DNA of 3,995 nt from NCBI RefSeq assembly GCF_055900595.2, contig NZ_JBVWEU010000011.1, one strand, 5' to 3'. This DNA comes from a plasmid. Positions within the stretch are counted from its first letter, which is position 1. Each line of letters begins with the position of its first letter. Shown piece by piece: positions 1,289 through 1,377 of the stretch. Under the pieces are notes generated by a model. That model did not search any database. It was not told where the DNA came from and saw nothing but the letters and a program-made list of their open reading frames with translations. A program made the position numbers and the translations under genes.

Positions 1289-1302
1289 TAATGCCCACTT
1301 AC

Positions 1303-1330
1303 ACGTCGCTTGCGACGTATGGGCCCTGCG
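1303..1330. other. Putative origin of transfer (oriT) core: perfect 7-bp inverted repeat plus GC-rich nic-like segment
   Basis: ACGTCGC (1303..1309)-tt-GCGACGT (1312..1318) is a perfect inverted repeat, followed by ATGGGCCCTGCGGGGC, a GC-rich island in an otherwise AT-rich intergenic region, located between the divergent mob operon and the relaxase gene. The GGG/CCCT at 1321..1327 resembles the RSF1010/R1162 nic region (GCG/CCCT) as I recall it. Confidence 0.45.
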
Positions 1331-1377
1331 GGGCTAAAAACCAAAATTCAAAAGACAAAAAAAGTAAGGGGTAGACT

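Follow-up and report, generated by a model that had tools for sequence, protein, structure and literature searches.

The intergenic region upstream of the relaxase gene on a small Klebsiella plasmid carries a perfect inverted repeat with a nick-like motif beside it, which raises the question of whether this element is a transfer origin (oriT) and, if so, on which strand and at which position it would be cut. We addressed this in a 3,995-base stretch of DNA (hereafter the window) that represents approximately the whole of a ~3998-bp plasmid and gave a 99.9% full-length match to complete Klebsiella pneumoniae plasmids. Our comparisons identify the segment 1289–1334 as the oriT of a MOBQ-type mobilization module, in agreement with the initial annotation, and they place the cut, most likely, on the strand antisense to the relaxase gene, on the opposite side of the hairpin from the site that the initial annotation had proposed.

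Gene context and anatomy of the intergenic region

The replicon that carries the element is a small ColE2-like plasmid, for which the reference annotation gives five genes: those for a replication initiation protein, “TraD,” a MobQ relaxase, and a hypothetical protein, together with a small ORF. Variants of the ~3998-bp plasmid with 90–98% identity were found in Enterobacter, Citrobacter, Raoultella, and E. coli; ~4-kb plasmids of this kind occur often in Klebsiella, Enterobacter, Citrobacter, Raoultella, and E. coli from clinical and wastewater sources.

The relaxase gene (1378..2571, plus strand, with its ATG at 1378) encodes a 397-aa protein that was assigned to MOBQ by profile and motif matches. 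It matched Pfam MobA_MobL (PF03389) with E = 7e-53 and NCBIfam MobQ (NF041496) with 230 bits against a cut-off of 200, and its N-terminus matched TraA_Ti (TIGR02768) with E = 6e-53. The ORF is intact, and the HUH relaxase domain makes up its N-terminal part (aa 1 to ~200, corresponding to 1378–1977, plus strand). Within this domain, Tyr25, in the context SAYQNRE, aligned with the ADYIQRE segment of RSF1010 MobA, and the histidine motif HDLDSHNPHAH occupies aa 126–136. By these matches, the protein is a bona fide MobQ/MobA_MobL enzyme with a catalytic Tyr and a histidine-triad motif.

A divergent operon lies on the minus strand. Its first gene, orf127 (751..1134, 127 aa), holds the position of TraC in Ti plasmids; it gave no Pfam match even at E ≤ 10, no meaningful NCBIfam match, and no similarity by BLAST to RSF1010 MobC, MOBQ4 MobC, or Ti TraC, and a homologue search returned only entries that are called “hypothetical protein” or are unnamed. 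The second gene (463..747, minus strand) encodes a 94-aa protein that matched Pfam TraD (PF06412, E = 1.7e-10), with weak BLASTP scores to MOBQ4 MobC (36 bits) and RSF1010 MobC (28 bits), and the motif ETRxKIxLG is common to all three proteins. The link to RSF1010 MobC is weak because a Pfam scan of the latter found no family. The initial annotation had spoken of a divergent MobC-family gene; this is not supported for the adjacent gene (751–1134), for which no family was found, but it has some basis in the second gene (463–747), whose product is TraD-like and weakly similar to MobC. By analogy, this TraD-like protein is a probable relaxosome accessory protein.

The spacer between the minus-strand ORF (751–1134) and the relaxase ATG at 1378 extends over 1135–1377 (243 nt). 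Within it, 59 nt upstream of the relaxase gene, lies the perfect 7-bp inverted repeat ACGTCGC-tt-GCGACGT (1303..1318), with arms at 1303–1309 and 1312–1318 and tt between them, directly followed by the right flank ATGGGCCCTGCGGGGC (1319–1334); direct reading agreed with the initial annotation on the position of both. On folding, the inner repeat formed a stem of 6 bp capped by a loop of 4 nt. Of the dinucleotide shuffles of the 243-nt spacer, 28.5% contained a perfect 7-bp repeat whose loop was ≤6 nt, and the whole window held five perfect 7-bp repeats versus 3.4 ± 2.2 expected; a repeat with at least five of seven arm bases G or C arose in 0.35% of spacer shuffles. A perfect 7-bp repeat is not rare by itself, and the stronger support for the hairpin is comparative. 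On the minus strand, which is predicted to be the nicked one, the hairpin at 1303–1318 is the predicted relaxase-binding site.

The initial annotation had also described this element as the only GC-rich block in the spacer, which the GC profile contradicts: a second block, ATTGGGCGAAGCCTGGGG, lies at ~1226–1247, where 16-nt windows reach 62–75% GC, and it too is conserved. Its conserved part, ATTGGGCGAAGCC (1226..1238), is found on the leading side, ~55–70 nt from the predicted nick, and it is kept in seven of the eight sequences of alignment A1 (the intergenic region of relatives at 76–100% identity), with variable sequence next to it. This second block (1226–1238) may serve as a site for an accessory protein.

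Strand and position of the predicted nick

For each system, we placed the relaxase gene on the right before reading the sense strand, and the cores of Ti, pIP501, and pSK41 were located by sequence. Read in this way, the pSK41-type plasmid shows AAGGGCGCACTTAT and then GCGAACG-ttc-CGTTCGC, pRE25 (pIP501-like) shows AAGGGCGCACTTA and then TACGCAGTAAC-ttc-GTTACTTCGTA, the Ti plasmid shows AAGGGCGCAATTAT and then ACGTCG-tggcg-CGACGT, and the window shows TAATGCCCACTTAC and then ACGTCGC-tt-GCGACGT, with order, strand, and 9-nt spacing equal in all four. Because the sense strands of the pSK41-type plasmid, pRE25, and Ti read so, the canonical core sits left of the hairpin and belongs to the antisense strand. 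In RSF1010, the pSK41-type plasmid, pIP501/pRE25, and Ti, the core TAAGTGCG/CCCT is located on the relaxase-antisense strand, 8–9 nt past the hairpin. The nicked strand of RSF1010 is CAGTTTCTCGAAGAGAAACCGGTAAGTGCG/CCCTCCC (PMC4814116), in accordance with the nick GCG/CCCT that the initial annotation had given. In an IncQ1 record, this strand is mobC sense and mobA antisense, and the start of mobA, on the opposite strand, is 82 nt distant.

On the minus strand of the window, the 9 nt GTAAGTGGG separate GCGACGT from the predicted cut, a spacing that equals that of the pSK41-type. The predicted nic core, 5′-GTAAGTGGG/CATT-3′, occupies 1290..1302 on the minus strand, and the cut is predicted between 1294 and 1293, 9 nt past the hairpin. 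A MOBQ consensus, NWACCNNTAAGTGCGCCCTYNN, is quoted in PMC3832669, where the oriT predicted for a Paracoccus plasmid starts with ATAAGTGGGCAC and is flanked by mobA and mobC, which diverge from it; the 12-nt core that we searched for makes up the center of this consensus. Only one site in the window lay within three mismatches of TAAGTGCGCCCT, at 1290–1301 on the minus strand. This window core, TAAGTGGGCATT, matches the 12-nt MOBQ core at 9 of 12 positions and has three differences from the canonical 12-mer (TAAGTGgGCatT), and the sole match to TAAGYGSGC in the window is the minus-strand core, which fits it exactly. About two matches with three mismatches are expected per window by chance, so the case for the minus-strand core rests on context: its resemblance to the MOBQ consensus is at chance level when judged by sequence alone and counts by its location. 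The 3′ side of the predicted minus-strand nick reads CATT, not CCCT; CCCT occurs on the plus-strand right flank. The minus-strand oligonucleotide sequence with the predicted GGG/CATT site is GGGCCCATACGTCGCAAGCGACGTGTAAGTGGGCATTACTAA, and its plus-strand counterpart with the GGG/CCCT site is TTACACGTCGCTTGCGACGTATGGGCCCTGCGGGGCTAAAAA.

The core is overlapped by the left arm, GCCCA (1293..1297), of an outer inverted repeat. It pairs with the right arm, TGGGC (1320..1324), which forms the core of the motif that the initial annotation had called nic-like. This outer repeat encloses the hairpin and leaves GTAAG as a bulge, and the 38-nt minus-strand fold that includes it had a free energy of −10.5 kcal/mol (z = −3.8). 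In alphaproteobacterial relatives, two of the six outer-stem pairs are changed on both sides. Outer repeats are found elsewhere as GCGCAC/GTGCGC in MOBQ4, GCAC/GTGC in the pSK41-type, and GCGC/GCGC in alphaproteobacterial relatives. From these comparisons, TGGGC (1320–1324), within ATGGGCCCTGCGGGGC, is probably the mirror arm of the outer repeat and not a nick; the right-flank motif looks nick-like because any inverted copy of the core necessarily resembles it when the opposite strand is read.

The rest of the right flank, CCTGCGGGGC, may form a small hairpin in the plus-strand fold, GCCC-TGCG-GGGC (1323..1334), in which 72.7% of cells were paired and the inner three pairs hold in 9–10 of 11 sequences. 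Covariation in this possible second hairpin is only suggestive, and the structure (1323–1334) could belong to the mobA leader or serve as a site for an accessory protein. A register with a 3-nt loop was rejected, as it did no better than slid controls. Within the family, the right flank shows strong conservation, which is a point against our placement of the nick.

We also compared the element with four known systems. By sequence, its geometry is closest to the pSK41-type oriT, its arm sequence and gene set are closest to the Ti-type, and its nearest relaxase relatives are MOBQ4. It resembles RSF1010/R1162 (IncQ, MOBQ1) in having the hairpin 5′ of the nick on the mobA-antisense strand, a core of the form TAAGTG-G/C, an oriT between mobA and a divergent accessory gene, and a single-Tyr HUH relaxase with Tyr25. 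It differs in that RSF1010 has a 10-bp repeat of unrelated sequence with 8-nt spacing (versus 9 nt here), the core TAAGTGCG/CCCT (versus TAAGTGGG/CATT here), no outer repeat in the IncQ1 record examined, and a MobA with a primase domain and an overlapping mobB, neither of which occurs here. The oriT of the pSK41/pGO1 family (Nes) has identical geometry, with 9 nt (ATAAGTGCG) between its 7-bp arm and the nick, GCAC...GTGC as an outer 4-bp repeat that encloses the hairpin, and a core that is kept while the hairpin diverges (PMC4993578). However, this family has a staphylococcal (Gram-positive) host, a relaxase domain that is ~33% identical, and CG/CCCT in place of the GG/CATT found here. The Ti/rhizobial oriT (TraA, MOBQ2), from which traCDG and traA run divergently, has nearly the same arms (ACGTCG...CGACGT), a TraD-family gene in the divergent operon, and a traA-antisense core, and the relaxase domain of the window matches TIGR02768 TraA_Ti. 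It differs in its core, TATAATTGCG/CCCTTGG, in the large relaxase-helicase TraA, in the presence of TraC and TraG, and in the quorum regulation of the system; orf127 here has no TraC similarity.

The MOBQ4 (pIGWZ12-like) plasmids are enterobacterial, and their 178-bp intergenic region is a functional oriT (PMC6856555). They are the nearest tested relatives, with a relaxase domain 46% identical to that of the window, and are likewise small enterobacterial plasmids, some of them ColE2 replicons. The 46% relaxase matches themselves, compared by pairwise identity, come from plasmids of E. coli and Klebsiella whose length of ~4.07 kb puts them in the pIGWZ12 size class; Klebsiella is not mentioned in the main text of PMC6856555. 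The MOBQ4 plasmids also share a right flank of the form (G)CCCTGCGGGGCT(A/G)AA, the outer repeat, and a MobC that is homologous to the TraD-like protein here. Relaxases of the MOBQ4 group have a preference for an oriT in cis. They differ in their core (TAAGTGCGCAC), their 6-bp arms, and their 13-nt loop, and also in gene layout: a small mobC (<100 aa) abuts the 178-bp region in MOBQ4, whereas 243 bp and orf127 intervene here. No mapped MOBQ4 nick position was found in the literature searched, nor in the supplements of PMC6856555, which hold no annotated oriT figure text. That study splits the 178-bp region into 1–70 and 71–178 with the numbering direction unstated, so that the split does not distinguish the flanks. 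In position, the element conforms to the claim of the initial annotation: it has the divergent accessory operon on one side and the relaxase gene on the other, an arrangement shared with RSF1010, Ti, and the MOBQ4 plasmids (PMC6856555).

Conservation, covariation, and probable exchange of the hairpin

Among the eight sequences of alignment A1, three types of arms were found (ACGTCGC/GCGACGT, ACACTCG/CGAGTGT, and ACATTGC/GCAATGT), all fully complementary bar one mismatch in the C. braakii copy (GCAACGT). The left-flank sequence TAATGCCCACTTA (1289–1301) is invariant throughout this alignment, and the right flank TGG-C-CTGCG-GGCTAAAA is nearly so. Among relatives, the arms read ACGTCGC, ACACTCG, ACATTGC, ACACTCAC, or ACACTGC, with compensatory changes and constant flanks. 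In an alignment of 11 sequences, three of the five counted arm pairs were changed on both sides and 94.5% of cells were paired; for the 11-pair structure of arms and outer stem, 90.1% of cells were paired versus 21–62% with the partner columns slid, and the observed covariation score was reached by no shuffle. These 11 sequences were hand-chosen, and the genome-scan members among them had been selected because a repeat follows their motif, which makes the statistics supportive and not unbiased. Taken at that value, the alignments indicate that the hairpin is maintained by compensatory changes.

The same layout of core, repeat, and relaxase gene was seen in MOBQ4, Pseudosulfitobacter, Gluconobacter, Gloeothece, and a second Klebsiella plasmid, whose relaxases are 35–46% identical to that of the window. 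The cores found with these 35–46% relaxase homologues are graded (TAAGTGCGCAC in MOBQ4, TAAGCGCGCAT, TAAGCGCGCAC, TAAGTGCGCCAT, and TAAGTGGGCATT), and, beside the core TAAGTGCG/CCCT, the cores of relatives form a graded series (TAAGTGCGCCAT, TAAGTGCGCAC, and TAAGCGCGCAT). A scan of 100,044 species genomes (one per species) with the 15-mer AATGCCCACTTAYAC yielded at least 120 matching stretches. Among the matches listed, most are chance, and 11 loci have a relaxase homologue in reach; only those were used. They come from Brenneria, Yersinia, Pectobacterium, Dickeya, and Cedecea, with relaxases 50–52% identical, apart from one near-identical plasmid contig that falls outside this range. In all 11 of these listed loci, motif, repeat, and relaxase gene share one orientation, and the motif lies 88–196 nt upstream of the relaxase gene. 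The repeat directly after the motif is ACACTCAC/GTGAGCGT or ACACTGC/GCAGTGT, and the right flank is GTGGGGTCTACCGACGG, without CCCT. Among the ~108 listed loci without a detectable relaxase, a repeat follows the motif in four; at one listed locus (L125), the repeat is present and the contig ends before any relaxase gene. Literature searches with the exact core strings TAAGTGGGCA and TGCCCACTTA returned no plasmid transfer origin paper among the matches listed, a search with CGCATAAGTGCG returned nothing relevant, and we found no paper describing the oriT of this ~4-kb plasmid family. One relative with an identical core is currently typed as “non-mobilizable.”

A copy of the plasmid is integrated in PKPCAPSS, a KPC-named plasmid that is typed as conjugative IncFII/IncR. 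Compared with this copy in 50-nt windows, identity is mostly 96–100% over ~426–1301 and after 1976, with four windows at 82–92%, and it falls to 48–80% over 1302–1975, bar the spacer 1320–1375 at 94%. The divergence starts exactly at 1302 and ends near 1976, and so covers the repeat and the relaxase catalytic domain; its left joint falls where the conserved core meets the hairpin. For the most part, the type of repeat follows the variant of the head domain, in that the same arms occur with 99% head-domain identity and ACACTCG arms with ~60%. The exception is ACATTGC, which occurs both with 86% and with 50% head-domain identity. In pSK41-like oriT mimics, an identical core that holds the nick is accompanied by a divergent adjacent hairpin that is thought to confer specificity (PMC4993578). 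The mosaic pattern fits a similar division, in which the core would be a common currency and the hairpin would carry the specificity. The position of the joint fits a left-flank nick better than one at 1323/1324, which favors the former without proving it.

Rival readings and the proposed mechanism

The anatomy of the element, its conservation and covariation, and the homology of its position, strand, and spacing are shown by the sequences. Every sequence-based test that could be applied gave the result expected of a MOBQ-type oriT. The proposal of the initial annotation that this segment is an oriT in the divergent intergenic region is upheld by the adjacent MOBQ relaxase, the covarying arms, and a layout that matches known systems. 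Its placement of the nick did not fare as well. In that model, the hairpin would act on the plus strand, the nick would be GGG/CCCT at 1323/1324, and the relaxase gene would enter the recipient first. We regard this as very unlikely, even though CCCT is preceded there by G, as in GCG/CCCT of RSF1010, the equivalent MOBQ4 flank, GTGCGCCCT, matches the canonical core at 9 of 9 positions, and the right flank is well conserved within the family (alignment A1). The site lies 5 nt from the repeat, compared with 8–9 nt in known systems; the TAAG element is missing from it, it has more than three mismatches to TAAGTGCGCCCT, and it is on the relaxase-sense strand, unlike the cores of RSF1010, the pSK41-type, pRE25, and Ti. 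G1323 is T in K. oxytoca, C. braakii, and one further sequence (L015), and CCCT is absent from the Brenneria/Yersinia group, three further loci (L012, L013, and L014), Ti, pRE25, and the pSK41-type plasmid; it is missing from most homologous oriTs in which the left core is kept. The motif itself is accounted for as the mirror arm of the outer repeat.

The same symmetry allows a reading in which the oriT is quasi-symmetric and either strand is cut (minus TAAGTGGG/C, plus ATGGG/CCCT), giving transfer in either direction or a termination cut. The outer repeat does put a G/C-containing copy of the core on both strands, and in the MOBQ4 plasmids both copies are close to canonical. Against this, the right copy has no TAAG and the wrong spacing, and it is not conserved outside the enterobacterial group. 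We know of no MOBQ system that is cut on both strands, and we give this reading very little credence; an exchange of hairpin and relaxase head domain as a cassette at a conserved core is more likely than two-strand cutting. A very improbable reading of another kind is that the palindrome serves mainly as a transcriptional operator for divergent promoters (for example, in autoregulation of the relaxase or of an accessory protein), with the nick elsewhere or the module defunct. The oriTs of pIP501 and pBBR1 overlap a promoter and their relaxases autoregulate (PMC4981023), and a promoter-like TTTACT-16-TAGAAT occurs upstream of the element, at 1179–1206. A promoter and terminator scan of 1100–1420 was, however, at chance level (one promoter found versus 1.1 expected), the relaxase ORF is intact with its motifs present, and an operator would leave unexplained both the layout of core and hairpin at every examined MOBQ relaxase and the joint exchange of the repeat with the relaxase catalytic domain. 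Operator and oriT roles are not mutually exclusive. We rejected the palindrome as a replication origin or single-strand initiation site, as the element accompanies relaxases on unrelated replicons (Rep_3, ColE2, repABC, and Inc18).

Our preferred reading, to which we assign a probability of about three in four, is that the hairpin of the minus strand is bound by the relaxase, which cuts GTAAGTGGG/CATT, and that the minus strand is then exported with the relaxase on its 5′ end. We infer by homology where the cut falls, in which direction transfer runs, and what part the accessory protein plays. In this mechanism, the N-terminal HUH domain (encoded at 1378–1977) would bind the minus-strand hairpin of the repeat at 1303–1318, and the single-stranded 5′-GTAAGTGGG-3′ after the hairpin would be threaded into the active site. 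The cut would fall between G (the complement of C1294) and C (the complement of G1293), with Tyr25 covalently holding the 5′ end. R1162 MobC helps to melt the nick region, and by analogy the TraD-like protein would probably assist melting here. The coupling protein and type IV secretion system of a helper plasmid would export the minus strand 5′ to 3′, such that the recipient would receive orf127 and the traD/mobC-like gene at the start and the hairpin and relaxase gene at the end. The regenerated hairpin and core would then be cut again and ligated, closing the circle.

The element is otherwise an ordinary MOBQ oriT of the RSF1010/Ti/pSK41 type, and what is gained is a corrected prediction of where, and on which strand, the nick lies. 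The case shows how a repeat in mirror image can look like a nick motif, and the right strand assignment tells experimenters which oligonucleotide and which orientation matter. With the correct oriT strand and cut position, annotation pipelines could call such plasmids mobilizable. If hairpin and head domain are indeed swapped as a cassette, this would create non-cross-reacting mobilization specificities among otherwise identical plasmids, and their co-exchange would be a clear enterobacterial example for the idea that the hairpin sets the specificity of the relaxase and the core sets the chemistry.

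A divergent hairpin and relaxase-head cassette

Comparison of the window with two closely related plasmids, L140 (NZ_KP008371.1) and L141 (NZ_AP022392.1), revealed a divergent cassette at window positions 1302–1975, which comprises the inverted repeat of the predicted oriT together with the catalytic domain of the relaxase (aa 1–200). Identity to L140 and L141 was 48–80% within this cassette, whereas outside it the plasmids were mostly 96–100% identical. In this comparison, the cassette joins the shared sequence on the left exactly where the nic core meets the hairpin, and on the right where the relaxase domain ends. 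The type of repeat largely tracked the variant of the relaxase head.

Conserved elements in and near the predicted oriT

Some 55–70 nt from the predicted nick, on its leading side, we found another conserved block of high GC content, ATTGGGCGAAGCC(TGGGG), at 1226–1247. This block was kept in seven of eight family members, with variable surroundings, and contains GCGAAGC, a very stable DNA mini-hairpin. Just to the right of the outer repeat, and partially overlapping it, lies a possible small hairpin, GCCC-TGCG-GGGC (1323–1334), the conservation of which reaches from the family of the window plasmid to the MOBQ4 plasmids. The sequence covariation observed here (CCC/GGG, GTC/GAC) is suggestive rather than conclusive.

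Genes and a candidate terminator elsewhere on the plasmid

The window is circularly permuted relative to the plasmid, so that one 264-nt gene runs across its ends (3957–3995 joined to 1–225). The ORF at 1–225 is the 3′ part of this gene, the annotation of which varies among records between “plasmid replication protein,” “hypothetical,” and “response regulator.” Relative to the 3998-bp reference plasmids, three single-base deletions were present in homopolymer runs, at approximately 274, 2781, and 3616, the last of which divides the rep gene (855 nt) between two ORFs (3107–3640 and 3655–3960); these deletions are probably errors of sequencing and not biological differences. In the interval from the end of the small ORF (225) to that of the traD-like gene (463), we observed an imperfect inverted repeat of 25 nt, AAAAAACCAGCC-aagatc-GGCTGGTTTTTT (415–470), flanked on both sides by A and T runs, which from its sequence looks like a putative bidirectional terminator.

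Relatives sharing the oriT core

The same oriT core and hairpin were detected in L003 (NZ_AP026387.1; positions 2501–2573 and 2657–3238), the C. braakii plasmid pKAM621_5, which is typed as “non-mobilizable” and whose gene table lists no relaxase. Within these positions this plasmid also carries an unannotated relaxase domain with 47% identity to the window relaxase. Among the matches listed, an identical nic core was also found on genome contigs L026, L027, L028, L043, L050, L058, L087, L123, L137, and L138, from Brenneria, Yersinia, Pectobacterium, Cedecea, and Dickeya, some of them 100–490 kb in length. On these contigs the hairpin differed from that of the window and the relaxase was ~50% identical, and some also carried a TraD-like gene. 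These contigs could represent either integrated mobilizable elements or plasmid contigs.
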